Source of the DNA: a virus
Virus genome (UHGV): UHGV-0185078
Length of the DNA stretch: 59,749 nucleotides
Strand: one strand, 5' to 3'
Each line of letters opens with the position of its first letter. Position 1 is the first letter of the stretch. The notes under the pieces are model-generated. The model did no database searches and had not been told where the DNA came from. It was given only the letters and a program-made list of their open reading frames with translations. Below, one piece after another: positions 1,468-57,321 of this stretch. The translations under genes were made by a program, and so were the position numbers.

Positions 1468-1875
1468 ATGACCGACACCAAAAAAGCCAAAGTTGCAGTA
1501 GCTAAAAGCTTTCGTGATTTTAAAACTGTGAGCCGGGCAAACGACCCGGCAAACACTAAGCCAATGAATGTGGTTATTCCTGGTGTAGGCGACACTGGCG
1601 AAAAACTCTACATTCGTAGCCGTTACTGCACAGAGTACCGTGATGCTGAACTGAAAGCACAGCGTCAACTGTTGGCGCTTATGCAGGGTAACGACGGTGA
1701 AGTAACGGATGCTATGAAGGAAGATATCCTTACCCGTTCACTGTGTAACCTTGTAGCAGGTTGGACTTTTGACGAGCCACCAACTGTTGACAACGTGTTT
1801 GAGTTCTTAACGGAGAACCCAACTGTTCGAGAAGATCTTAACGTATTTGCCGCCAAAGATAGTAATTTTTTCTAA
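1468..1875 (+). CDS. tail assembly chaperone (lambda G-like)
   Basis: 135 aa ORF between major tail and tape measure genes; ends ...AAT TTT TTC TAA with a T6C slippery run at 1866-1872. Confidence 0.55.
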   Translation: MTDTKKAKVAVAKSFRDFKTVSRANDPANTKPMNVVIPGVGDTGEKLYIRSRYCTEYRDAELKAQRQLLALMQGNDGEVTDAMKEDILTRSLCNLVAGWTFDEPPTVDNVFEFLTENPTVREDLNVFAAKDSNFF

Positions 1876-2273
1876 AAGCGCGCAGACAGTTAATTGATAA
1901 GAAGATCCTCCAATGGGAACTAAATAGCAAAGTCCCCGGCGGGGGATCTTCTTTATTATCGCAACTGCAAAAGGTTGAGGAACAGTCTGGTAAGACGCCA
2001 CCTAAGCTTAAAGAATATCGGGAAAAGGAAATACCGATTTGCTTTGAATACCTGTCTACTTTATTTGATGACATTTACACTGGAGGGGATTTTAGCTATA
2101 CAGAATTGCACAGCTATCAGGTAACAATGGGCTTACATCTTCAACCGTACGAATGCGAAATACTGCGACAGCTATGGCTTGAAAAGCGCGTGTCTGAAGC
2201 TGAACAAAATGCTAAACTCATGGAAAGTCAAATGCAAAATCAGAATAAAGGTAGAAGGAAAAGGAGAAGGTAA
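1866..2273 (+). CDS. -1 frameshift extension producing GT-like tail assembly chaperone fusion
   Basis: The -1 frame is open from the slippery T_TTT_TTC (1866-1872) to TAA 2271-2273 (about 134 codons, ...LWLEKRVSEAEQNAKLMESQMQNQNKGRRKRRR) with no in-frame ATG or RBS of its own until 2127; stop overlaps tape measure ATG. Confidence 0.45.
   Translation, partial: FFLKARRQLIDKKILQWELNSKVPGGGSSLLSQLQKVEEQSGKTPPKLKEYREKEIPICFEYLSTLFDDIYTGGDFSYTELHSYQVTMGLHLQPYECEILRQLWLEKRVSEAEQNAKLMESQMQNQNKGRRKRRR
1932..1957 (+). terminator. weak hairpin plus U-rich tract inside the GT extension
   Basis: tcccc-ggcg-gggga stem-loop followed by tcttctttatt; may attenuate transcription into the tape measure gene. 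Confidence 0.3.
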
Positions 2274-5200
2274 TGGCCGAAACTGCTTCGCTAGTAATCA
2301 GGGTTGACGCGAAAGGGATTAGCACAGCGGACTCCATGCTGCGTAACCTTGCGCGTACAGGTGACACAGCGGAGCGTTCCGCTCAACGTGTCACATCCAG
2401 CTATAAAACATTGTCTAACACATCTAACGAACTTGCAACTGTCACAAGTCGTTTAGATGCTGCAATTGTAGGAATGATCAGCGTTGACACCATTAACCGT
2501 GTTATTTCGCTATCGGACTCCTGGACTATCCTCACCAACAAACTTGAACTGGCTCGTACGGGTAATGAAACCGTTGCGGATGCACAGCAACGCGTGTTTG
2601 ATATTGCCCAGCGGTCACGTACAAGCTTGGAAGCAACTGCAACTCTATATTCCCGTCTCCAGCGTGCAATGAAGAATACTGGTATGACGGGTATGGAGCT
2701 TGGACGTATCACTGAAACAATCAACAAAGCGATGATTGTTTCCGGTGCAACATCACATGAAGCAAGCGCTGCCCTTATTCAGTTTTCGCAAGCAATGGCA
2801 TCCGGTGTTCTGCGAGGGGATGAATTCCGTTCTGTTGCAGAACAAGCCCCGCGCTTAACGCAAATTATGTCCGATGCGTTAGGTGTTACCATTGGACAAT
2901 TGCGTGAAATGGCCTACAGTGGCAAGTTAACCGCCGATGTGGTTATCAAATCGTTGTCTGGTGCTGCGGATACAATTGATAAAGAATTTAGCCGCACTAT
3001 GCCAACGTTCAACCAGCAATGGACGGTCGCAACAAATAACCTGACTAAGTTTATGGGCGAATCCCAAAAGACTCAGGGTGCGGTTGCTGCATTGGGACAG
3101 ACGTTTGTTGCATTATCCGGAAACTTAGGAACGGTTGTAACGGTTGGTTCAGCTTTAGCCACAGTAATTACCGCCCGTATCATCACCGCAATGCTTGCTA
3201 AGACTAAAGCGTCTATAGCTGCTGCAAAAGCATCTCAGATGGAAGCTGCACAGACTGCGGCAACTACTGCGGTAATGCAAAGCTCTATTGGCGTTACTGC
3301 ACAGAAAGCGGCTGCGGATCGTGCTGCTTCGCTTGCGGCGTTACAGGTTGCTCGCGGGTCATTAGCGGTTGCTAAAGGTACGGCAGCGGAAGCAGGTGCA
3401 CGTCTTGCGCTTATTAACGCTACTCGTGCGCATTCTGCGGCAATTATGGCGGACGTACAAGCGCGGCAAGCGCTCAATGCTGCTCTTAATGCAACTGTAC
3501 CAGCGGCAAGCCGAGCCGCTACAGCAATGAGCGTGCTGCGCGGTGCTATGGGGTTAATTGGCGGTCCTGTTGGTGTAGCAATGCTGGCAGCGGGTGCAAT
3601 TTACTCCTATAAAGCGTCGCTGGAAGCTGGTCGTGCGGAAAACAATCAGTTTGCGGATAGTGTTGATACTGTACGCGATAAACTGATGCAGATGACAGAA
3701 GCTCAGTTAGCTGCTAACGCAGTTAAAGCTCGCGCAATTCTCCCCGAACTTGAAGAGCAAATGAAGCGGGAGCAAACTGCTCTTAAATCTGCAACGGAAA
3801 CGCAGAAGTTCTATGAAGCGCAATTAAAACGTCGTGCTGCGTCCGGTCGTGATACAGCCAGTGCTGAAAAGAATTTACAAATTGCAACGGATAACGTCAA
3901 GCTTGCTGCTGAACGTGCTGAAGAAGCTCAACGTCGTTACAACAATGTCTTAGAAATGACAAGCCCTGCTATCGAGAAGATAATCCCGTTAGCTCGTCAG
4001 CTTGCAGCGGATATGAAAGCAGTGCTTAATATCAAATCCGGTCCGCTTATTGACGAGAAAGTGCTTGATCGTTTTAAAGGTCAGTTAGGTGACGTTAACC
4101 GTGAGATTGACGTCAACACGGTTAAAGGTGCTGGTAACGCTCGCCAGGCTGCAATCCTTAGTGGGCTGTATCAAACTCTGGGCAAAGATGCAGACACCTA
4201 CGGAAGTCTTATTCGCAAAGTAGCTATGGGTCAGGACGTTAGCTCAGAGGCAACAAGCGAATCTGCTAAAGAGCTTGTTAAATATGCTCAAGATTTAGCC
4301 CAAGCTCTTGGCAAAAACTACGATCTTGAAGAAGCAGAGAGAAACCGGACTAAAGCTACAAAAGACGCTATTAAGGCGCATCAACAAAACGCTAAGGTTA
4401 TTGACGATTTACGAAACAAGCTTAACGAAGTAACCACAGGGGTTAAGGAAAACGCCAAAGCGAAAGCGCAAGCGGTGGCACTTAATAAGCTCAATGCGTC
4501 TGCAACGGCTGCGGAAAAAGAGGAAGTTGTTAGACTTGCTGCTGCAATCTACGATGCAGAAGAAGCTCAAAAGAAACTGGACGAGCGTAAGAAGAACCGT
4601 AAGTTTGCTCAGGGTCTGTTAGATGAAGGTATGACAGACTATGAAAAAATCGCGTACGAGCAAAATACAAAGATTGCAGAGCTTAATGCAAAACAGCGAG
4701 CTGATGATTTAGCTTACTATCAGCTTTACGAAGATGCTAAAACCCAAGTCCTGAAGAAAGCAAGCATGGAAAGGGAAAATCTGGATAAAGTTCTTATGAA
4801 CCGAATGATATCCTTTTCTCAGGAATCCTTAGGCATTATAATGGATGGACTGTCACAGGCTGTAAGCCAGCAGAACTTCTTTTATAAAGCTATGTTTGCA
4901 GCACAGAAAGCAATGCAAATCCCGTCAATCCTTGCTAACACGGAAACGGCAGCATCCGCGGCGCTTGCATGGGGTACACAGCAAGGCGGTGCTACAATGG
5001 GCGCAACAATGGCAGCTATAGTGAAAACTATGGGCTATGCGTCAGCAGCTACTGTGGGTGGCTTAGCAATTGCTGGTATGGCTCACGACGGTATTGATAA
5101 CGTTCCGCGTGAAGGTACATGGTTGCTGGATAAGGGCGAACGTGTACTTAATGCTCCGTCTAATGACAAGTTAAATCGCTTCCTGGATAGCCAAGCTTCA

Positions 5201-46661: not shown

Positions 46662-46882
46662 AAATATTCATGATACTAGGCGTTATAATTGCCGCTTTCG
46701 TTGTATTTGCAATTGTAGACTCTAAAGAAATGGAGCGGCAAAACTGCCAACGTACTGGTAACAGCCGGGATGATATCATTTGGCAATATATTTATGATGC
46801 AAAAGGTAATGTTATGTCAATGTATCCTCAAGTCATTACTGAGTATGAATATAAATGTGATGACCGTAACAGGTGGAGATAA
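46658..46882 (+). CDS. small membrane protein
   Basis: 74 aa, N-terminal hydrophobic helix. Confidence 0.45.
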   Translation: MKIFMILGVIIAAFVVFAIVDSKEMERQNCQRTGNSRDDIIWQYIYDAKGNVMSMYPQVITEYEYKCDDRNRWR

Positions 46883-46884
46883 TA

Positions 46885-47424
46885 ATGAGCTGTCAAAAAT
46901 GTAACGGAACGGGAATGGTTGATAGTGGTGGAGTTCAACCGTGGGGTGAGTCTATTCTGGTGGAGTGTGATTGTTTATATCGTGATCGCGACGCTTGGGA
47001 ACTGGATCAAGCTGGAGGTTATTACTCCCGTCATGTTATGGCAATGACATCCGAAGGTTTGCACAGCAAAGGTGATATTGCTGCGGAGCTGGGCTATCGT
47101 GATATGCGGATTGACCAGTTAGAAGCAGAATGGCGTGCTCAGGAAGAACGTGCCGAAAATGCTGAAACTAACCTTGTCGACATGCGTGCTGCTGAGCACG
47201 CTCTATCCGATTCTTATATTCGTTTGCGTCAAATTGTTGGTGCAATGAATCCGCCGGGTGTGACCAGCGAAGAGGTGTGGGCGCATACCGAGAAGAAGGC
47301 TCAAGAGTTGCGTGATCGCTGCGAAGCTCTGGAAGCTGTAGCAAAGGACTTCCTGCGTCGTAACGCTAACGGTCCTTTGTTCTATCGTGATCTGTATAAC
47401 CGTTTTAAGGAGATTGTAAAATGA
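46885..47424 (+). CDS. zinc-ribbon protein (DnaJ-type CxxCxGxG motif) with coiled-coil C-terminus
   Basis: ATG 46885 after GGTGGAG RBS; N-terminal CQKCNGTGMV...CDC. Confidence 0.45.
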   Translation: MSCQKCNGTGMVDSGGVQPWGESILVECDCLYRDRDAWELDQAGGYYSRHVMAMTSEGLHSKGDIAAELGYRDMRIDQLEAEWRAQEERAENAETNLVDMRAAEHALSDSYIRLRQIVGAMNPPGVTSEEVWAHTEKKAQELRDRCEALEAVAKDFLRRNANGPLFYRDLYNRFKEIVK

Positions 47425-47757: not shown

Positions 47758-48150
47758 ATGCTATTAGTCGTCACCGGAGGTCGAGATTTTAAGCATGTGG
47801 AGTATATTTACGCTCAATTGGATAAGCTGCATATGCAAAGAAGGATAACCACACTTCGCCACGGTGACGCTGACGGTGTTGACCGGATTTGCGCACATTG
47901 GTCAGAGCGCAACGGTATTAAGACAGAAGCGTTCCCTGCCCCGTGGGACAATCTTTCGCTTCCAAATACTAAGATACGGTATAACGCCAGAGGTGCTTAT
48001 AATGCCCAAGCGGGCGCTTACCGTAATCAATTAATGCTGGATACTGATCCTAAACCAGATCACGCTATTGTGTTTCCGGGCGGAGCTGGTACTATGGACA
48101 TGTACAGACGGATTAAAGCATCCGGTATTCCTTACACATTAGCGGAGTAA
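47758..48150 (+). CDS. SLOG/DUF2493-like Rossmann-fold protein
   Basis: LLVVTGGRDF...RHGDADGVDRICAHW...FPAPWD...GAYRNQLML...AIVFPGGAGTMDMY pattern typical of the SMF/DprA-LOG superfamily. Confidence 0.4.
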   Translation: MLLVVTGGRDFKHVEYIYAQLDKLHMQRRITTLRHGDADGVDRICAHWSERNGIKTEAFPAPWDNLSLPNTKIRYNARGAYNAQAGAYRNQLMLDTDPKPDHAIVFPGGAGTMDMYRRIKASGIPYTLAE

Positions 48151-48153
48151 ATA

Positions 48154-48624
48154 ATGGCTGACGTTAAAACTATTGTTGATGCAATGGACGAATCCAAAGA
48201 CTGCCAACTGAAGAAGTCGTTTGAAGTAAAACAGGTTACAGAGACTCAGTTAATAGCAAGATTCGCACGTCGTTGCGGCTTGGGGCGCGGGAAAGACTGG
48301 AACGGGCTTATTGTTATGCCCACATCACAGATCCTTGTCTATGTCCGTAATGTTGTAGAAGATCTTTTACGTCTTCAAATAGATATTGGTGACGTAGAAA
48401 TTAACATGACCGCGAGCACTACTATTGTGGTTAAATGGCAGTCGGGCGAGACACTGCGTTTGGAAGCGTGCCATTGTGCTAAAAGCTTGCACCACCTGCG
48501 CGGTTGTTACTACCAGTTTGTTGGGTTTGTGCATCCGCAAGGGTTAAGCGAGCGTACGGCGCTGGTAGCGCGTTTGCTGCTGCGTCCTTATAATAACGAG
48601 CCGGAAGTCATATACGAGGCATAA
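48154..48624 (+). CDS. hypothetical protein
   Basis: 156 aa, GGAG RBS. Confidence 0.45.
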   Translation: MADVKTIVDAMDESKDCQLKKSFEVKQVTETQLIARFARRCGLGRGKDWNGLIVMPTSQILVYVRNVVEDLLRLQIDIGDVEINMTASTTIVVKWQSGETLRLEACHCAKSLHHLRGCYYQFVGFVHPQGLSERTALVARLLLRPYNNEPEVIYEA

Positions 48625-48626
48625 AA

Positions 48627-49052
48627 ATGTCAGTAAATTTTGTCAAACAGCCAACTTTAAATACATGCGTTTCTGCGTGTTTGGCAATGATCCTTAATAA
48701 ACCTGTTGAGAAGGTGATTGAGGAATTTCATAGTCGTTATTATAACAACTGGGAAATCACTATCAGCGAATATTTGACTAAAAACGGCGTCCAGCATCAT
48801 TGTTCAGAAGGTGGTGGGCGCGAAACTTTGCATATGGGGGGTTTGTTCCTGTGCACGGTGCCAAGTCTTAATATTCCGGGCGCATTGCACCAGATTGTGA
48901 TTGATATGACAGATCACAAGTTTATTGTGCATGATCCAATTAAAGGATGGGAAGGTAAAAAGTTCTATGTTGGTCCGGATCAAGATCCTGAAGAGCCAGG
49001 AGCTTTTATCATTCATACTTGGGTCAAAGACGTTGAAATCCTGCCTTATTAA
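48627..49052 (+). CDS. papain-like cysteine peptidase (C39-like)
   Basis: N-terminal QPTLNTCVSACLAMILNK resembles the C39 catalytic Cys region; later HQIVIDMTDHKFIVHD supplies candidate His/Asp. Confidence 0.45.
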   Translation: MSVNFVKQPTLNTCVSACLAMILNKPVEKVIEEFHSRYYNNWEITISEYLTKNGVQHHCSEGGGRETLHMGGLFLCTVPSLNIPGALHQIVIDMTDHKFIVHDPIKGWEGKKFYVGPDQDPEEPGAFIIHTWVKDVEILPY

Positions 49053-49114
49053 TTTTCTTGCTATCACATAACCCTTCATTGTATTGTGTACCCATCGAAT
49101 AAGAGGGGTACACA

Positions 49115-49300
49115 ATGACCAAACTATACGCCGGATTGTTTTTATTTGCGACGTTAATGTTCGCTGGGCTTTATACCTATACAGTAGTCGAACAACCTTC
49201 CACGGTTATCCGAATCTTTGCAAGTACAGGGCTTTGTATCTGTCTTATTCTATTTGTTTTATGCATTGTTATTATCCAAGACCAAAGGAAAATTAAATGA
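49115..49300 (+). CDS. small two-helix membrane protein
   Basis: 61 aa, AGAGGGG RBS, two hydrophobic helices. Confidence 0.4.
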   Translation: MTKLYAGLFLFATLMFAGLYTYTVVEQPSTVIRIFASTGLCICLILFVLCIVIIQDQRKIK

Positions 49301-49761
49301 CCACAATTGCGTTTGATGGAAAAGTATTAGCTGCGGACCGTGGAGTTATGCGCGGGGAAGCTGTGACTGCTTATAAGAAAGTTCATAGCGTAAATGGACA
49401 TCGTGGACGGTTTTTACTGGGCTTGTGCGGCCTTACAGCATTTACCGATCAGGTGTTGCGTTATTTTAATAGCGCGGAACCTGTTAAGTTCCCTGATATT
49501 AAACTTTACAGCAAAGATGATGATTACGGGCAAACTTGCGGTCTTGCGGTTACTCCGGAAGGTACTTGCCATTTTATTTATAATGATGGTACTTTGAGCG
49601 AACCCATGCTGGATGGATGGGGATCTGAGGGTAGCGGTTGTGTGTTTGCTGCTGGCGCGTTAGCTGCTGGTGCAAGTGCGAGCGAAGCTATTGAGTTAGC
49701 AATTAAACACACCACATGCGCATTCCTGGGAGTTGATACAATATCATTTGAGGGTTTTTAA
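49297..49761 (+). CDS. HslV/proteasome beta-subunit-like Ntn hydrolase
   Basis: N-terminus MTTIAFDGKVLAADR parallels HslV MTTIVSV...IAGDG (Thr nucleophile after Met); GSEGSGCVFAAGALAAG parallels the HslV GSGG...A motif. Confidence 0.55.
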   Translation: MTTIAFDGKVLAADRGVMRGEAVTAYKKVHSVNGHRGRFLLGLCGLTAFTDQVLRYFNSAEPVKFPDIKLYSKDDDYGQTCGLAVTPEGTCHFIYNDGTLSEPMLDGWGSEGSGCVFAAGALAAGASASEAIELAIKHTTCAFLGVDTISFEGF

Positions 49762-50022
49762 ATGACTACATTCAGTCACCTGATCCCACCTGCTTATCAT
49801 AGTAAGGTAGTTGACCACGGGACGCATGTTGTAATTGGTGGCGAAATCTTTATCACAGATAACGAGGAAATCGCCATTGCAATTATTGACAGCACTCAGC
49901 ATGACTTTATGGTTATCCTGCAACACGAACCAGATAACTTCACTTTTTACTCCAACTACGGGGTCGATAAAGGTGGAAAAGGTCTTGTTAGCTGGTACAT
50001 TAACGACTGGTTTGACGGGTAA
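49762..50022 (+). CDS. hypothetical protein
   Basis: 86 aa, GAGGG RBS. Confidence 0.4.
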   Translation: MTTFSHLIPPAYHSKVVDHGTHVVIGGEIFITDNEEIAIAIIDSTQHDFMVILQHEPDNFTFYSNYGVDKGGKGLVSWYINDWFDG

Positions 50023-50104: not shown

Positions 50105-50542
50105 ATGGCACTTCAACCTCGTGGTATTCGTAATAACAATCCAGGTAATATTCGCTGGGGTGACAATTGGCAGGGCTTAGTTCCTGCTGATAAGCGAACC
50201 GATAAATCTTTTGCTCAATTCACGCAACCGATTTACGGCATTCGTGCACTAGCGAAAATCCTGACAAACTACACCAAACGTGAAGGCTTACCCAATGTGG
50301 GTAAGAAAAACATCGACACTGTACGTGAAATCATCACTCGCTGGGCACCGCCTAACGAAAACGATACGGAAGCGTATATTCGCTCTGTTGCCAAAGCAAT
50401 TGGTGTTCAACCTAACGATCCAATTAATGTCTTTGACAAGGCAATTATGTCAGGATTGGTGAAAGCAATCATTCGTCATGAAAATGGCATGATGCCCTAT
50501 ACCGACGACGTAATTAACCGCGCTATTGCAATGGTAATTTAA
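50105..50542 (+). CDS. putative endolysin (peptidoglycan hydrolase)
   Basis: ATG 50105 with GGAGG RBS; 145 aa soluble protein immediately upstream of holin and spanin genes; fold class not assigned. Confidence 0.5.
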   Translation: MALQPRGIRNNNPGNIRWGDNWQGLVPADKRTDKSFAQFTQPIYGIRALAKILTNYTKREGLPNVGKKNIDTVREIITRWAPPNENDTEAYIRSVAKAIGVQPNDPINVFDKAIMSGLVKAIIRHENGMMPYTDDVINRAIAMVI

Positions 50543-50578: not shown

Positions 50579-50923
50579 ATGTTCAATTCACCCAACGAAC
50601 ATTGGGCAGTTCTAGCGGGGTTTGCGTTTATCTCCCTTATTGGGGGAGCTCTCGGTTATGTTATGCGTACAATAGACGCTGGTAAGAAAGTACGGGCAAG
50701 CATTGCATTTCTTGAAGGCTTATCCGCCGCTTTCTTTGGCGTTATAATGTATGCGATCTACAGGGAGTTTAACATCAGCCTTTGGTTCGCTTTTGGCCTT
50801 GCTGGCCTATTTGCTTGGGCAGGTTCACGTGCTACGCTAAAAGCCCTAACGTCGCTTATAGCTTCACGGACAGGGATCAAACTCGATTCAGGGGACTGCA
50901 AACATGAAAACGATTCTAAATAA
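50579..50923 (+). CDS. holin (three transmembrane helices)
   Basis: 114 aa, three hydrophobic helices, charged C-terminus; GGAGGG RBS. Confidence 0.6.
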   Translation: MFNSPNEHWAVLAGFAFISLIGGALGYVMRTIDAGKKVRASIAFLEGLSAAFFGVIMYAIYREFNISLWFAFGLAGLFAWAGSRATLKALTSLIASRTGIKLDSGDCKHENDSK

Positions 50924-51566: not shown

Positions 51567-52124
51567 ATGAACGGGGCAAGTCAAGAGCAATATGATCGTG
51601 ACTGGACGAATTACATCCAGTATGCAAATAGCTTGTCCGCTGAAGAGATGGCAATACGTGACAAAGTTGTTGCTGAGTACATGTTCGACTACAATTGGAC
51701 TAACGCTTGCATGAGATGCGGGTTCAATGCTATGTTTGCACAGGAGCTTGGCCAACGCTTTGCCACGGACTGTTATGTTCGATGGAAGCTCAAGGAGATT
51801 GAAAGATCCCGTGTTCAACGTACTTCTGAGCAAGCTAACATTGAAGCAGACCTTGAGCGTCAGCATATCATTGAAGCATTAAAACGTGAAGCTCATTATA
51901 CAGGACCGGGGTCTTCTCAAGCTGCTAGAGTCGCTGCATTGGGCAAGCTTGCACAAATTTATGATTTGGATGCTCCCAAGAAGGCTAAGATTGATGTTAC
52001 TAACAGAGGCGGCGTAATGATAGTCCCTGCTGTAGCAAATATTGACGAATGGGAAAAAACTGCATCCGAGTCTCAACAACGACTAGTTAAAGAGACTGAA
52101 GATGGAGCTAAACCGACAACCTGA
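51567..52124 (+). CDS. terminase small subunit
   Basis: 185 aa ORF directly upstream of, and overlapping, the large terminase gene. Confidence 0.55.
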   Translation: MNGASQEQYDRDWTNYIQYANSLSAEEMAIRDKVVAEYMFDYNWTNACMRCGFNAMFAQELGQRFATDCYVRWKLKEIERSRVQRTSEQANIEADLERQHIIEALKREAHYTGPGSSQAARVAALGKLAQIYDLDAPKKAKIDVTNRGGVMIVPAVANIDEWEKTASESQQRLVKETEDGAKPTT

Positions 52125-53661
52125 TAACATGCCGCGAGTAGTCTGGAAGCCACATCCAGGTTCACAGACGCTCGCTTTATCCTGTCCTGCTGATATCATT
52201 TTATACCACGGTACTCGCGGTCCTGGAAAGACGGACTGTCAGCTTATGCGTTTCCGTAAGAATGTTGGCGTAGGGTACGGTAAATTCTGGAAGGGTATTA
52301 TATTCGACCGTGAATATAAAAACCTTGATGACCTTGTAACTAAGTCACAGCGTTGGTTTCCTGAATTTAAAGACGGTGCTAAATTCCTTAGTTCCAAGTC
52401 TGATTATAAATGGGTTTGGCCTACTGGGGAAGAATTGCTGTTCCGTGTTGCTTGCAAAGAAAAGGATTATTGGTCTTATCATGGTCACGAATACCCGTTT
52501 ATCGGATGGAACGAATTAACAAAGTATCCGGACGGGCGTTTGTTTGAAGCAATGATGTCCTGTAACCGTTCATCATTCCTACCCGAAGATAATCCAATCA
52601 TCAATCCGGACGGTACTGTCACATATTTACCAGACATTCCTCTGGAAGTGTTTGCCACCAGTAACCCGTTTGGCGCGGGGCATAACTGGGTTAAGAAACG
52701 CTTCATTGACGCTGCACCGATGGGTAAAATACTCAGGAAAACTACGCGAGTGTTTAACCCGCGGACGCAGAAAGAGGAAGATGTGGTTACGACGCAATGC
52801 CATATCTTCGGATCTTACCGTGAGAACAAAAACCTGAGCCCGAAATATATTGCAGAGCTTATGTCCATCACAGACCCGAACAAACGAGCTGCATGGTTAG
52901 GCGGTAGCTGGGATATCACCTCCGGCGGTATGTTCGATGATCTGTGGCGTAGCACTGTTCATAAAATACGCCCATTCCCAATCCCATCAAGCTGGAAGAT
53001 TACACGTTCTTTCGACTGGGGTTCTTCAAAACCATTCTCCGTTGGCTGGTGGGCTATTAGTGACGGTTCGGATGTTATACGTGAAGATGGTACTACATTC
53101 TCTACTGTTCGCGGTGACTTATTCCGTATTAACGAGTGGTACGGCACTAATGGTAAAACAAACGAAGGTCTACATTTGCTGGACTCAGAGATTGCAAGCG
53201 GTATACTGGAGCGGGAATTGGCCTGGGGTATACACGACCGTGTAGTTCCCGGACCTGCGGATAACTCTATTTGGGATCTGGAGAACAATAACTCTACCGC
53301 CGCAACAATGGCGAAGAAAATCCGTCTTAACGGCAAGCTGTATAACGGTATTCATTGGAAGAGAAGTGATAAATCTGCTGGGTCGCGTAAACGCGGATGG
53401 CAGAAAATGCGTGAGTTTCTTAAAGCTGCATTGCGGGAAGATGCAAACGGTAAACCTTTGCCGGGACCACGTGAAAATCCAGCAATGTATGTTTTTGATA
53501 ACTGCAATTATTTCTTTGAACTTGTTCCAAGTCTTCCGCGCGATGAAGTAGATCAGGACGACGTTGATACGGAATGTGAAGACCATATGGGCGATGAAGT
53601 ACGTTATATGGTTCTGGATCAAGCTGTTTATACAGGTGTCGGTAAAACTATCGGTATTTAA
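52102..53661 (+). CDS. terminase large subunit
   Basis: 519 aa; P-loop YHGTRGPGKTD; acidic nuclease-domain motifs in C-terminal half; followed by portal gene. Confidence 0.85.
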   Translation: MELNRQPDNMPRVVWKPHPGSQTLALSCPADIILYHGTRGPGKTDCQLMRFRKNVGVGYGKFWKGIIFDREYKNLDDLVTKSQRWFPEFKDGAKFLSSKSDYKWVWPTGEELLFRVACKEKDYWSYHGHEYPFIGWNELTKYPDGRLFEAMMSCNRSSFLPEDNPIINPDGTVTYLPDIPLEVFATSNPFGAGHNWVKKRFIDAAPMGKILRKTTRVFNPRTQKEEDVVTTQCHIFGSYRENKNLSPKYIAELMSITDPNKRAAWLGGSWDITSGGMFDDLWRSTVHKIRPFPIPSSWKITRSFDWGSSKPFSVGWWAISDGSDVIREDGTTFSTVRGDLFRINEWYGTNGKTNEGLHLLDSEIASGILERELAWGIHDRVVPGPADNSIWDLENNNSTAATMAKKIRLNGKLYNGIHWKRSDKSAGSRKRGWQKMREFLKAALREDANGKPLPGPRENPAMYVFDNCNYFFELVPSLPRDEVDQDDVDTECEDHMGDEVRYMVLDQAVYTGVGKTIGI

Positions 53662-53672
53662 CTGGAGGGTAT

Positions 53673-55169
53673 ATGGGTATTGATGCAACTCACCCGCTAT
53701 ATGACAAGTGGAAGGATGCATGGGTTAAGTGCAACGACTGCTATGAGGGTGAAGATAAAATTAAGGAAGAAGGTGTTAAATATCTGCCACCTTTAGCTTC
53801 CATGCTTATTGATGGGATGAATAATCCTAATGATTTGGGCTTTCAACGTTGGCTCGCTTATCGTCTGCGTGCTAACTTCCCTGACGATTATTCAAGTGCT
53901 GTCACAAACAATTTAGGTCTGTTGCACCAGAAGCCTCCTACAATCCAGCTTCCTCCTGAAATGGAGTACATGCGGGAGCTGTGTACTGCGGACGGTGAAG
54001 ACATTATTGCTCTGCTACGTCGCATCAACGAAATGCAGTTAAAAAATGGACGTTTGGGCCTGCTGCTGGACTTGCCGAAAGGTGAGGATGTAAATAACAG
54101 ACCTTATATTAGCGTTTATGATGCTTTATCCATTATCAACTGGGATGATGGTAAAGATGAACTGGGTAATATCAACTTGAACATGGTTGTACTGGATGAA
54201 AGCGGTCCTGTACGTGTCAATCAGTTTGACTGGAAAGAAGAGAAGCGTTATCGCGTTCTGCAATTAGGTCCAATGGACACAGATGAAGTTGCAGGTGGGG
54301 CAGTTTACTCCCAGCATTTATTTATTAACAATACCAATTATGATGAAGGGCAAATGATTGCTCCTTATTATAAAGGTAACACGCTGGACGAAATACCTTT
54401 CCAGTTTGTCAATACAACAGATATTACCCCAGCACCGGAAGCGCCTCCATTGTTAGGTCTTGCTAACATTTGTCTAAGCATGTACCGAAGTGACGCGGAT
54501 TACCGCCAAAGCTTGCATATGCAGGGGCAGGACACTTTAGTCGTTGTTGGCGGTACTGGGGAGAATGGAGATAAAGCCCCTCAGCGCATCGGTCCTGGAG
54601 CGGTCATTAACGTTGCTATTGGTGGTGACGCTAAATATGTAGGCGTTAGCGGTGACGGTTTGTCCGAGCAACGCCTCGCATTAGCAGCGGATAAGCAAGA
54701 AGCTCAGATTAAAGCCGGGCAGATGGTAAACAACACCAAGAGCACGCAGGAATCGGGCGAAGCTATGAAAACGCGTATTGCTGCGCGTACCGCTAGCCTG
54801 ATTCGAATTGCGTATACTGGTGCGGCAGGTTTGGAAAACTTGCTGAAGGTTTGTGCTAAATGGATGGGTGCTGATCCAGAGAAGGTTGTGGTTAAGCCTA
54901 ATCTTGAATTTACCAAGAGTATGTTTAACGGTCAGGACTTTGTTCAAATTATTACTGCACGCAACCTTAAGGCTCCGATCAGCTTGCAGTCTATTCATGG
55001 CTGGCTTGTTGATCAGGGCTTAACCACACTAAGCTTTGAAGAAGAAATGGCAATTCTTGAAGAAGAGCTTAAGAAGTGGCCTCTGCCCGATGATGCTAAA
55101 GCTGATTTAAACGCAGAGCAGCAAGTAAACAAAGATCCTAAGGAAGACGACGCTTCCGATAAAGAATAG
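53673..55169 (+). CDS. portal protein
   Basis: 498 aa with acidic C-terminus, between terminase and scaffold/capsid genes. Confidence 0.7.
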   Translation: MGIDATHPLYDKWKDAWVKCNDCYEGEDKIKEEGVKYLPPLASMLIDGMNNPNDLGFQRWLAYRLRANFPDDYSSAVTNNLGLLHQKPPTIQLPPEMEYMRELCTADGEDIIALLRRINEMQLKNGRLGLLLDLPKGEDVNNRPYISVYDALSIINWDDGKDELGNINLNMVVLDESGPVRVNQFDWKEEKRYRVLQLGPMDTDEVAGGAVYSQHLFINNTNYDEGQMIAPYYKGNTLDEIPFQFVNTTDITPAPEAPPLLGLANICLSMYRSDADYRQSLHMQGQDTLVVVGGTGENGDKAPQRIGPGAVINVAIGGDAKYVGVSGDGLSEQRLALAADKQEAQIKAGQMVNNTKSTQESGEAMKTRIAARTASLIRIAYTGAAGLENLLKVCAKWMGADPEKVVVKPNLEFTKSMFNGQDFVQIITARNLKAPISLQSIHGWLVDQGLTTLSFEEEMAILEEELKKWPLPDDAKADLNAEQQVNKDPKEDDASDKE

Positions 55170-55264
55170 TTGCAACTTCCAAATTGATTGGTTTATATTA
55201 ACGAACACGGGGCTGGGACGGCTCAGCCCCAAAAACGTCACACGGGTGACAACGGAGATAAGAA

Positions 55265-56137
55265 ATGAAAAAGAGTTCTGTAGCTATTAATGTTGGTATG
55301 GCTTTAATTAATCCACGCGCTCGCGGTGAAGGTGATGTGGAACTGGAATACGAATATGCATCTGCGGAAGAGATTCCGGCAGAGTTTGCTGCTCTTTACG
55401 CAGAGCAGGGCGGTAAATACGTTCTTGCAAAAGTTAAAGGTGTAGCCCCTGCTGATAGCGTTCGTCGTCTGGAAAGTGCGTTAGCTAAAGAACGTAACGA
55501 CCATCGTCAGGTGAAGCAACAGATTAGCGCACTTGGGCGTCCGGTTGAAGAAGTCCTTGCGGACCTTGATCGTATCCCTCAACTGGAAGCTGCCGCTAAC
55601 GGTAAAGGTACTCCGGAAGACATCGAAAAGATGGTTAAAGCCCGTCTTGCTCCACTCGAGCGTCAATTGCAAACTGTAGCAGCTGAACGCGATTCCGTTA
55701 AACAGGAAATTGAAGGCTACCGCACTCGCGAAACTAAAGCGAAGATTAAAGATGCAGTTATTGCCGCTGCTTCTGGTGCTAAATTGCGTCCATCCGCTAT
55801 CGAAGACGCTGTAACTTATGCACAGTTGCAGATGACCGTCGACGAGAACGGCAATGTGGTTACGAAAGATGGGGCTGGTGTAACTCCTTACCTGACTCCG
55901 GCTGACTGGCTGAACGAAATCCTTCCGAAACGTCCGCACTGGGTTGAAGGATCTGCTGGTGGTGGTGCATCTGGTCCGGGCGCTGGTGGCCATCACGGTG
56001 AAGATCCATACAGTCACGACGGTTGGAACATCTCTAAGCAGATGAACCTCTGGAAAACTAACCAATCTTTAGCTAAACGTTTAGCTGAAAAGAATGGCGT
56101 AGACCCGCTGAAGCCTGTACGTCCTGCTAAGAAATAA
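55265..56137 (+). CDS. scaffolding protein
   Basis: 290 aa, Ala/Glu/Lys-rich predicted coiled coil, directly upstream of the major capsid gene. Confidence 0.5.
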   Translation: MKKSSVAINVGMALINPRARGEGDVELEYEYASAEEIPAEFAALYAEQGGKYVLAKVKGVAPADSVRRLESALAKERNDHRQVKQQISALGRPVEEVLADLDRIPQLEAAANGKGTPEDIEKMVKARLAPLERQLQTVAAERDSVKQEIEGYRTRETKAKIKDAVIAAASGAKLRPSAIEDAVTYAQLQMTVDENGNVVTKDGAGVTPYLTPADWLNEILPKRPHWVEGSAGGGASGPGAGGHHGEDPYSHDGWNISKQMNLWKTNQSLAKRLAEKNGVDPLKPVRPAKK

Positions 56138-56138
56138 G

Positions 56139-56184
56139 TTGACATCCCGACGTCCCTGATGTTAAGTTTCAACACATCAGGGAC
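56139..56184 (+). promoter_or_regulatory. candidate promoter with overlapping 11-bp inverted repeat upstream of capsid gene
   Basis: TTGACA-18-TAAGTT; inverted repeat gtccctgatgt...acatcagggac spans the -10 region. Confidence 0.3.
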
Positions 56185-56259
56185 ACGGGTTCCTAAACAG
56201 CCTTCCACGGGGAAAGGCTACCAACAGTAAACAAATCAATCCTTTTCCTGGAGACAAGT

Positions 56260-57321
56260 ATGTCTAAATCTAAAATTATTCTACCATTTGGTCGTGGTGA
56301 AACTGACCTGACTCGTTTGAAGGATGTCATTGTCCCTGAAATCTTCACTGGTTATGTGCAGACGCAGACCGCTGAACTTTCTGCTCTGATTCAATCCGGT
56401 GCAGTTGTAATGGACGAGCGTTTATCTGCTAACCTTGCTGGTGCAGGTTTGACTTTTAACGAGCCGTTCTATAACGACCTGAAAGATGAAGACGAAGATA
56501 TCGCGGTTGATAAAGGTAATCCGTCCAAACCGTCAAACATCACTACCGGATCTGAAGTTCAGGTTCGTATGAGTCGTTCAAAATCCTGGGGTTCTGCGGA
56601 TCTGGTATCTGCTTTGATTGGTAACGACCCAATGACCGCTATCGGCAACCGCGTGTCTGCGTGGTGGGTTCGCCGTCTGCAAGCTGCATACATCGCAACC
56701 TGGAAAGGTGTATTTGCTAATGCGAAGAAATCCCATAACGACGATTTGACTTTCGATATTTCCGGTTCTTCGTTTGTAAACAACCAGACCAACTTTACCG
56801 CGTCTAACTTCATCAACGCAACTGCAACGATGGGTGATGCTGCTCGCGGTCTGACCATGATTATGGTACACTCTACCGTTCGTAACCGTATGCGTCAGTT
56901 GAACCTGATCGACTTCATTCCAGATGCTCGCGGTGAAACTCAGTTTGAGTATTATCAGGGTCTGCGTATTATTGAAGACGACTCCATGCCGCACGATCCG
57001 TCTACTGGTGTCTTCGAAAGCTGGCTGTTCGGTCCGGGCGCCACTGCAATGGGTGCTGGTTCACCAAAAGTTCCGACCGCTGTGGTTCGTGACGAAGCTG
57101 CTAACAATGGCGCTGGTGAAGAAGTTCTTCACAACCGTGTTGAATGGATTCTGCATCCGGTCGGTCATGCTTGGGCCGCTGCCCAAACTGCTAAAGGTGG
57201 TCCGTCTAACGCTGCTACCACTAACAACCTGGCCCATGAAGATTCCTGGCGTCGTGCGTTCCCTGAGCGCAAGCAGCTTAAAGTCGCACGCCTGATCACT
57301 CGTGAGTATCAGGGTTCCTAA
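56260..57321 (+). CDS. major capsid protein
   Basis: 353 aa; GGAG RBS; followed by a strong terminator; position after portal and scaffold. Confidence 0.7.
   Translation: MSKSKIILPFGRGETDLTRLKDVIVPEIFTGYVQTQTAELSALIQSGAVVMDERLSANLAGAGLTFNEPFYNDLKDEDEDIAVDKGNPSKPSNITTGSEVQVRMSRSKSWGSADLVSALIGNDPMTAIGNRVSAWWVRRLQAAYIATWKGVFANAKKSHNDDLTFDISGSSFVNNQTNFTASNFINATATMGDAARGLTMIMVHSTVRNRMRQLNLIDFIPDARGETQFEYYQGLRIIEDDSMPHDPSTGVFESWLFGPGATAMGAGSPKVPTAVVRDEAANNGAGEEVLHNRVEWILHPVGHAWAAAQTAKGGPSNAATTNNLAHEDSWRRAFPERKQLKVARLITREYQGS

Follow-up and report, generated by a model that had tools for sequence, protein, structure and literature searches.

The C39 peptidase domains of ATP-binding cassette (ABC) transporters, for example those of PCAT1, ComA and LahT (MEROPS C39, PF03412), are fused to their transporters, and the same fold also occurs in a toxin. 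StbD-CT of Citrobacter rodentium (PDB 8ssm, 8ssk), the C-terminal domain of a huge CdiA-like contact-dependent inhibition protein that also has an entry domain and is accompanied by an immunity protein, acts in the bacterial cytoplasm on a folded protein and not on a leader peptide. HslV (ClpQ, the peptidase component of bacterial HslUV), BPH (the beta-proteobacterial proteasome homologue; PDB 5ovs, 5ovu) and the beta subunits of the 20S proteasome represent the N-terminal nucleophile (Ntn) hydrolases; helices H1 and H2 of HslV form a part of the ring and ATPase contacts, while BPH has no known partner ATPase. SLOG domains of the YAcAr (YspA/cpYpsA-related) family, in turn, have been noted in phages, and the use of NAD+ or the binding of a nucleotide-derived ligand was predicted for them (Iyer and colleagues, PMC7824862). 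Here we consider a block of six tightly packed plus-strand open reading frames (ORFs) that encodes relatives of all three, a SLOG protein, a C39-like peptidase and an HslV-like peptidase, upstream of the endolysin, holin and spanin genes. It occupies positions 47758-50022 of the virus genome UHGV-0185078, a stretch of 59,749 nucleotides that was analysed as a whole and is called the window below.

The window is the genome of a Seuratvirus (Queuovirinae), an Escherichia coli phage type. A 3.2-kb stretch spanning the region is 97% identical at the DNA level to that of Escherichia phage CAjan, with the same gene order, and 93-97% identical to those of 33 other public records, including phage Seurat. 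The six genes are conserved across phage genomes and are real, not chance ORFs. The preliminary description, made from the sequence alone, had called the cluster not a standard phage module, and this was overstated given so many close copies and given that each of the enzyme families is common in phages.

We favor the reading, with a probability of roughly 60%, that the block is a set of syntenic accessory genes heading the late string of Seuratvirus (lysis, then packaging), rather than one dedicated machine with several parts. Of the six proteins, three would be enzymes or ligand-binders from large phage families that usually travel separately, acquired one by one and sharing their timing. 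The YAcAr SLOG domain would bind NAD+ or a nucleotide-derived ligand and act separately on a nucleotide signal; the C39-like enzyme would act as an endoprotease that cuts behind small residues (sites of the Gly-Gly type), its targets being one or a few proteins in the cytoplasm that belong to the host or the phage; and the HslV-like protein, after removal of Met1 by the host methionine aminopeptidase, would become a ring-shaped Thr1 peptidase and, late in infection, break down peptides or unfolded proteins, either by itself or with the host HslU driving it. The co-location within one clade would then owe more to common ancestry and common timing than to an obligatory link.

Joint and separate occurrence of the peptidase genes

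We compared 163 loci, drawn from 80 viral loci retrieved by an HslV-like profile, 75 retrieved by a C39-like profile, and isolate genomes. Both peptidase genes were present in 21 loci; 79 loci had only the HslV-like gene and 63 only the C39-like gene; in all paired loci (21/21) the C39-like gene came first, on the same strand. All paired loci belong to a single clade of siphoviruses with genomes of about 60 kb, comprising Seuratvirus, Nonagvirus (JenP2), a Klebsiella relative, Craquatrovirus PSTCR4 and Pantoea phage Vid5. The coordinated proteolytic system suggested by the preliminary description is hence not supported by the distribution of its two enzymes.

Within the paired clade the large terminase gene (terL) is 75-99% identical to that of the window (79-99% within Queuovirinae, 75% in Craquatrovirus PSTCR4). 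In the paired lineages outside Seuratvirus the identity is 75-81%, where terL is inside the fetched locus; the loci fetched for Vid5, JenP2 and the Klebsiella phage yielded no terL match. As the terminases of these lineages are closely related, the paired occurrences cannot be treated as independent events.

Several considerations weigh against separately acquired accessory genes. The peptidase genes remain neighbors throughout the clade, the C39-like one first, even where the sequence identity is as low as 26-39%, and what lies between them changes: there may be nothing, the 61-aa membrane protein gene, a helix-turn-helix (HTH)/Mor-like gene, or the SLOG gene. The SLOG gene joins the peptidases in three genera in three different orders, which is the pattern expected of a functional link and is compatible with one. 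Late expression of the block is presumed from the gene order, since scans of the 43.5-52.2 kb region for sigma-70 promoters (20 vs 17.7 expected) and intrinsic terminators (12 vs 8.4 expected) were at the chance level. The HslV-like protein, with its helix H1 short and H2 absent, may not form HslV-like rings or bind HslU. Finally, substrates and timing are our inference: the literature found on phage-encoded HslV-like and C39 proteins and on the proteases of Seuratvirus consisted only of genome announcements and unrelated papers, with no functional study and no experiment on either phage peptidase family. The KpAvs2 paper concerns the Seuratvirus terminase, not the genes of the block.

The same distribution bears on a true three-part module, in which the SLOG protein senses or produces a nucleotide-derived signal and controls both peptidases, or one peptidase activates the other, and host or defense proteins are remodeled as a result, in the service of counter-defense or takeover. 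The three genes are indeed neighbors in Seuratvirus (SLOG-x-C39-x-HslV), Providencia phage PSTCR4 (SLOG-C39-HslV, where stop and start codons overlap) and Pantoea phage Vid5 (C39-SLOG-HslV), the SLOG gene being a YAcAr homologue in the latter two as well. A SLOG gene was seen in just one of the 79 loci with the HslV-like gene alone and in none of the 63 with the C39-like gene alone, and the pairing of the two peptidases has been retained despite the divergence of the proteins to about 30% identity. However, given terminases that are 75-81% identical, these co-occurrences are not independent; the Nonagvirus-type phages and Hafnia phage yong3 hold both peptidases without SLOG; and most members of each family are found without the others. 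Besides, the HslV-like protein has no propeptide that a partner could remove, and among the six block proteins there is no match to any PADLOC model and no anti-defense match. Thus, we regard a three-part module as unlikely. A host-takeover or anti-defense role of the block, as envisaged in the preliminary description, is possible.

In the Nonagvirus-type phages and in yong3, the small HTH/Mor-like gene is situated between the C39-like and HslV-like genes (positions 3409-3762 in locus L003, 2660-3004 in L006 and 2402-2776 in L008), and is called a 'late transcriptional activator' in one record; there is no such gene at this place in the window.

Folds, active sites and candidate substrates

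The 141-aa C39-like protein falls below the Pfam cut-off for Peptidase_C39 (14.3 bits vs 22 for PF03412), and the match covers its N-terminal 23 residues only; among 82 family members, 22 give a sub-threshold match to the same profile (best E=7e-4). In PHROGs the family, phrog_4049, has no assigned function. The AlphaFold2 model built from the 82 sequences (predicted local distance difference test, pLDDT, 95) has a papain-like fold of the reduced C39 type. Relatives of the protein among PDB entries came from structure comparison alone, as single-sequence and profile searches of the PDB sequences gave chance-level matches only. Cys14, His88 and Asp103 are invariant in the family alignment A3, and over 152 homologues with approximately 30-40% identity to the query the conservation is 97% for Gln8, 98% for Cys14, 91% for Cys18, and 100% for His88, Asp103 and Pro104, so that both the catalytic Cys/His/Asp and the oxyanion-hole Gln are retained. 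The peptidase assignment of the preliminary description thereby holds, but the catalytic cysteine is Cys14 and not Cys24. The protein has no signal peptide and no hydrophobic segment on the Kyte-Doolittle scale, and its N-terminus is the active-site helix; hence it is cytoplasmic.

An exhaustive profile search produced 823 cluster representatives of the C39-like family at 50% identity, mostly stand-alone proteins of 135-160 aa, and a further search with the 82-sequence alignment added almost no new members. In ten longer members with N-terminal extensions, Pfam revealed no informative fusion domain, apart from one YunG-like domain. The family is represented in 197 phage records from many unrelated groups, where its genes occur in lambdoid nin-type neighborhoods (NinB, NinG, DnaC-like) and in small early-type gene blocks of Mydovirus, Samunavirus and Enhodamvirus. 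Public labels of the protein are 'papain-like cysteine protease', 'ABC-type bacteriocin transporter peptidase domain' and 'cysteine protease'.

According to another suggestion of the preliminary description, the enzyme would cleave the Gly-Gly leader off a small peptide that the phage encodes. C39 domains classically do so, and the fold match is to exactly those enzymes. On the other hand, leader peptidases are fused to exporters, whereas the phage enzyme is stand-alone, with neither a transporter nor a leader substrate nearby; it also differs from the exporter domains in being cytoplasmic, scoring below the PF03412 cut-off and forming a family of its own. No ABC transporter or bacteriocin-like gene is present in the genome, and none of the 711 ORFs of at least 25 aa on both strands of the window matches the strict double-glycine leader pattern; the relaxed pattern picks up a Rossmann loop, a PP-loop and a membrane segment of a holin. 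Leader processing is therefore hardly credible here.

The comparison with StbD-CT leads to a different candidate substrate. StbD-CT cleaves GyrB between Gly101 and Gly102, and also ParE, using Gln177, Cys183, His258 and Asp275 together with a second cysteine, Cys187 (preprint 10.64898/2026.05.07.723447). Among the top structural matches it has the highest sequence identity to the phage protein, and the spacing of the key residues is nearly the same: Q8-x5-C14-x3-C18 in the phage protein, with 74 residues from Cys to His (75 in StbD-CT) and 15 from His to Asp (17 in StbD-CT). The C39-like enzyme could therefore be a host-takeover protease that cuts the Gly-Gly of the GyrB/ParE ATP-lid motif (HAGGK) as StbD-CT does, shutting down the host type II topoisomerases. 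A suggestive setting is found in the Kuttervirus SeF6a (a Salmonella phage of the Ackermannviridae; locus L005, 1059-4745), where a C39-like homologue with 42% identity lies between two topoisomerase II subunit genes, and the large subunit has YAGSNF at the place of HAGGKF of E. coli GyrB, hence lacking the Gly-Gly site. Yet the SSN-type ATP lid is common to the T4-type and eukaryote-type topoisomerases II, and so its presence in SeF6a does not discriminate. The Q-x5-C-x3-C motif, likewise, is general to C39 domains rather than specific to StbD-CT, and on this ground the Cys-x3-Cys motif was dropped as a specific link between the two proteins. Neither single-sequence nor profile searches detected sequence-level similarity between the C39-like protein and StbD-CT, and classical C39 domains score higher than StbD-CT. 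In most other phages the C39-like gene has no topoisomerase neighbor, and since Seuratvirus encodes no topoisomerase, destroying the gyrase might harm the phage itself.

Taken together, we consider topoisomerase cleavage very unlikely. An extended version, in which phrog_4049 peptidases cut the GyrB/ParE lid, the Ackermannviridae place the gene between topoisomerase II subunits devoid of Gly-Gly, and the Queuovirinae pair the enzyme with a late-expressed miniature HslV peptidase, appears just as doubtful; if true, it would be a widespread and previously unrecognized phage route to disabling the host control of DNA topology.

The 154-aa HslV-like protein belongs to the PHROGs family 'peptidase HslV family', and a profile of 18 homologues finds HslV (3e-8), BPH (4e-7) and also the 20S beta subunits among PDB sequences; the match to Pfam PF00227 (Proteasome) is below the cut-off (15.4 bits vs 22.4). 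In the profile alignment Asp14 corresponds to the Asp of the HslV GDRQ motif, Lys28 to Lys33, and the Gly-Ser-Gly to the GSGG loop. The AlphaFold2 model (pLDDT 94.9) is an Ntn alpha-beta-beta-alpha sandwich, and Foldseek matches it to HslV, BPH and 20S beta with probability 1.00, E of about 1e-6 and template modeling (TM) scores of 0.6-0.69. The predicted nucleophile is Thr2, which becomes Thr1 once Met is removed, accompanied by Asp14, Lys28, Gly45 and Gly112-Ser113-Gly114. The Met-Thr start, Asp14 and Lys28 are each kept in 99% of 88 distinct viral homologues; the figures for Gly45, Gly112 and Ser113 are 98%, 99% and 63%, respectively. Thus, an N-terminal threonine without a propeptide and the equivalents of Asp17 and Lys33 are all in place, and the fold and catalytic residues foreseen in the preliminary description stand. 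As in the C39-like protein, there is no signal peptide and no hydrophobic segment.

The likeness to HslV covers the Ntn fold, the Met-Thr-Thr start without a propeptide, and the equivalents of Thr1, Asp17, Lys33, Gly45 and Gly-Ser-Gly, at an identity of approximately 17-19%; the phage protein, however, is about 20 residues shorter, with a loop in place of H2 and an H1 of 12 residues. Superposition on BPH and 20S beta is equal or slightly better (TM 0.63-0.69), and profile matches behave likewise. No partner ATPase is known for the phage protein, a trait that it shares with BPH; neither its immediate neighborhood nor the rest of the syntenic CAjan annotation holds a gene for an HslU-type or other AAA+ unfoldase. 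Compared with BPH, too, the phage family is shorter, and by any measure used it is no closer to BPH than to HslV.

The SLOG assignment was likewise upheld. The 130-aa protein matches PF10686 (YAcAr) with 61.8 bits against the curated cut-off of 28.2 (E=5.6e-17) over positions 3-64 of the 66-position profile, that is, over the full-length domain, and belongs to the PHROGs family 'GTP-binding domain' (E=1.8e-22); a sequence search of the PDB gave nothing usable. Judging by the family, a nucleotide-derived ligand is predicted for it. It differs from the described YAcAr proteins by the absence of a fused effector domain.

Late gene neighborhoods

The HslV-like gene has the same orientation as the lysis, terminase and portal genes and lies 1.8 kb upstream of the small terminase gene (terS); the lysis genes start the late string, followed by terminase and portal. 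A divergent member of the family retrieves 455 phage records, including Jerseyvirus and Phapecoctavirus. In 47 of 78 loci with the HslV-like gene and without the C39-like one, terminase, portal or capsid genes are situated within 4 kb on the same strand, and these neighbors come from unrelated families (Terminase_3, Terminase_6, phrog_2, P22_portal, DUF4055, Gp13-like). Near packaging genes the family is enriched about two-fold at most, and near-duplicates are frequent among these loci. In the IMG/VR loci (L013-L088) and in L168 and L171, the gene is found beside terminase, portal, capsid, Neck1 or lysis genes; in places, for example in L023, it is wedged between terL and the portal gene, a few bases from both, and the arrangement in one prophage is the same. 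In Jerseyvirus SE2 it directly precedes the holin and endolysin genes. Hence, the HslV-like family is a habitual resident of late operons, at variable positions.

Given such positions, a late function in morphogenesis or lysis could be envisaged for one of the peptidases, the HslV-like protein being the likelier candidate. This might be the processing of the scaffold or capsid in a phage devoid of a canonical prohead protease, or proteolytic control of the lysis timing or of the envelope. The head module of the window (53673-57321) consists of the portal, a 290-aa scaffold-like protein and the major capsid protein; Pfam finds no protease domain in it, and none is annotated in CAjan. Many IMG/VR contigs with different terminase and portal families carry the HslV-like gene between terL and portal, after the portal gene, after the capsid gene, or before Neck1, and the translational coupling of the gene to that of the small membrane protein (see below) is compatible with a link to lysis. 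The C39-like gene, too, may lie among the head genes, as in a Methylophaga prophage, where it is found between a Mu-type portal gene and MuF.

Nevertheless, head modules with a scaffold and without a protease are normal (P22, T7 and SPP1 types), and the enrichment given above is modest. The place of the HslV-like gene in the late operon differs greatly from locus to locus, as is usual for accessory genes and unusual for core morphogenetic ones; the family is hence better explained as accessory late genes than as a part of the morphogenetic core. In the paper on the virion proteomics of Vid5, the text contains no mention of a protease or peptidase. We thus consider a morphogenetic or lysis-linked role quite unlikely and retain the reading of accessory late genes.

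In the Methylophaga prophage (L169/L170, 4505-7672) the C39-like gene overlaps both the portal gene and MuF, which hints that the protein could be virion-associated or ejected in that lineage.

The remaining genes and the surroundings of the block

The preliminary description had placed the SLOG-like, C39-like, membrane and HslV-like genes on the plus strand upstream of the lysis cassette, and the ORF map agrees with it, coordinates included (Table 1); it left out two members of the block, the genes for the 156-aa and 86-aa proteins.

Table 1. Features of the block and of the adjacent late genes; coordinates refer to the window.
Feature	Coordinates	Strand	Basis
YAcAr-family SLOG protein, 130 aa, phrog_289	47758..48150	+	Pfam PF10686, PHROGs
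156-aa protein, function unassigned, phrog_25149	48154..48624	+	phrog_25149 E=5e-106
C39-type (clan CA) cysteine peptidase, 141 aa, stand-alone, leaderless, phrog_4049	48627..49052	+	predicted Gln8, Cys14, His88, Asp103
Perfect 11-bp inverted repeat, hairpin as RNA	49082..49117	+	RNA folding
61-aa protein, two hydrophobic segments, phrog_22841	49115..49300	+	phrog_22841 E=6e-45, hydropathy
HslV/proteasome-beta-type hydrolase, miniature, 154 aa, phrog_1040	49297..49761	+	phrog_1040 E=5.4e-32, profile, fold
86-aa protein, function unassigned, phrog_23528	49762..50022	+	phrog_23528 E=5e-50
Endolysin (context)	50105-50542	+	syntenic CAjan/RefSeq annotation
Holin (context)	50579-50923	+	Pfam PF16083 Phage_holin_3_3, E=4.8e-10
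Spanin-like ORFs (context)	downstream of holin	+	ORF map, CAjan synteny
terS (context)	51567-52124		ORF map
terL (context)	52102-53661		ORF map

The 61-aa protein has two hydrophobic segments (residues 7-25 and 36-54), in accordance with the two-helix membrane protein proposed earlier, and it is the only one of the six block proteins to have any. Its stop codon overlaps the start codon of the HslV-like gene (ATGA), and the gene is confined to Seuratvirus-type loci. The same is true for the 156-aa protein, which has no Pfam, NCBIfam, PADLOC or PDB sequence match; NCBIfam gave no usable match for any of the six block proteins. The 86-aa gene begins straight after the stop codon of the HslV-like gene, and its homologues with 30-40% identity are situated downstream of HslV-like genes in yong3, Klebsiella phage vB_Kpn2-P2 and the IMG/VR loci L117, L121 and L123; a PDB sequence search with this protein gave nothing usable.

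The 62-nt gap in front of the 61-aa gene contains the inverted repeat ATTGTGTACCC-N-GGGTACACAAT. As RNA it would fold into a hairpin with a minimum free energy of -20.1 kcal/mol (z=-3.9; none of 200 shuffled sequences was as stable) that covers the ribosome-binding region and the start codon of the 61-aa gene. The repeat is unique in the window and was seen only in Seuratvirus loci; in Hafnia phage yong3 this same stem stands ahead of the homologue of the 61-aa gene. The hairpin could be an element of translational control, or else the repeat could be the binding site of a dimeric regulator.

Upstream of the block, at 46873-47424, the window has a 183-aa ORF with an N-terminal CxxC...CxC motif, where CAjan has only a 63-aa gene annotated, and several related phages align to the window only from approximately 47685 onwards; thus, the region just upstream of the block is variable among Seuratviruses. 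Aeromonas phage SD04 (MH230177.1) and Cronobacter phage CSP1 (KY982929.1) are about 93% identical to the E. coli Seuratviruses across the region, and such close DNA identity under so wide a set of host labels is unexpected.

Some public annotations of the region are inconsistent. The endolysin, which has no Pfam match, is named 'structural protein P5', 'capsid and scaffold protein', 'capsid protein' or 'endolysin' in different records. In Escherichia phage CSP1C (PQ202980.1, locus 1859-4119) the GenBank product names are apparently displaced by one gene: 'DprA' is assigned to the gene after SLOG, 'T3SS chaperone' to the C39-like gene, 'cysteine protease' to the 61-aa membrane protein gene, 'HslV' to the 86-aa gene, 'endolysin' to the holin gene, and 'holin' to the spanin gene.

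RefSeq already labels genes of the block as 'peptidase HslV family' and 'GTP-binding domain'. The block is thus not a newly found system; its genes are already catalogued and functionally unexplored, and the present analysis confirms and sharpens the existing annotation and reveals no new kind of system. To our knowledge, phage-encoded intracellular proteases are rare outside capsid maturation. Both peptidase families considered here are large, the C39-like one with at least 823 sequence clusters and the HslV-like one with members in hundreds of phage genomes, and their active sites are almost perfectly conserved. Knowledge of their substrates would reveal how many phages, among them therapeutic ones of E. 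coli and Salmonella, manipulate their host at the late stage of infection.

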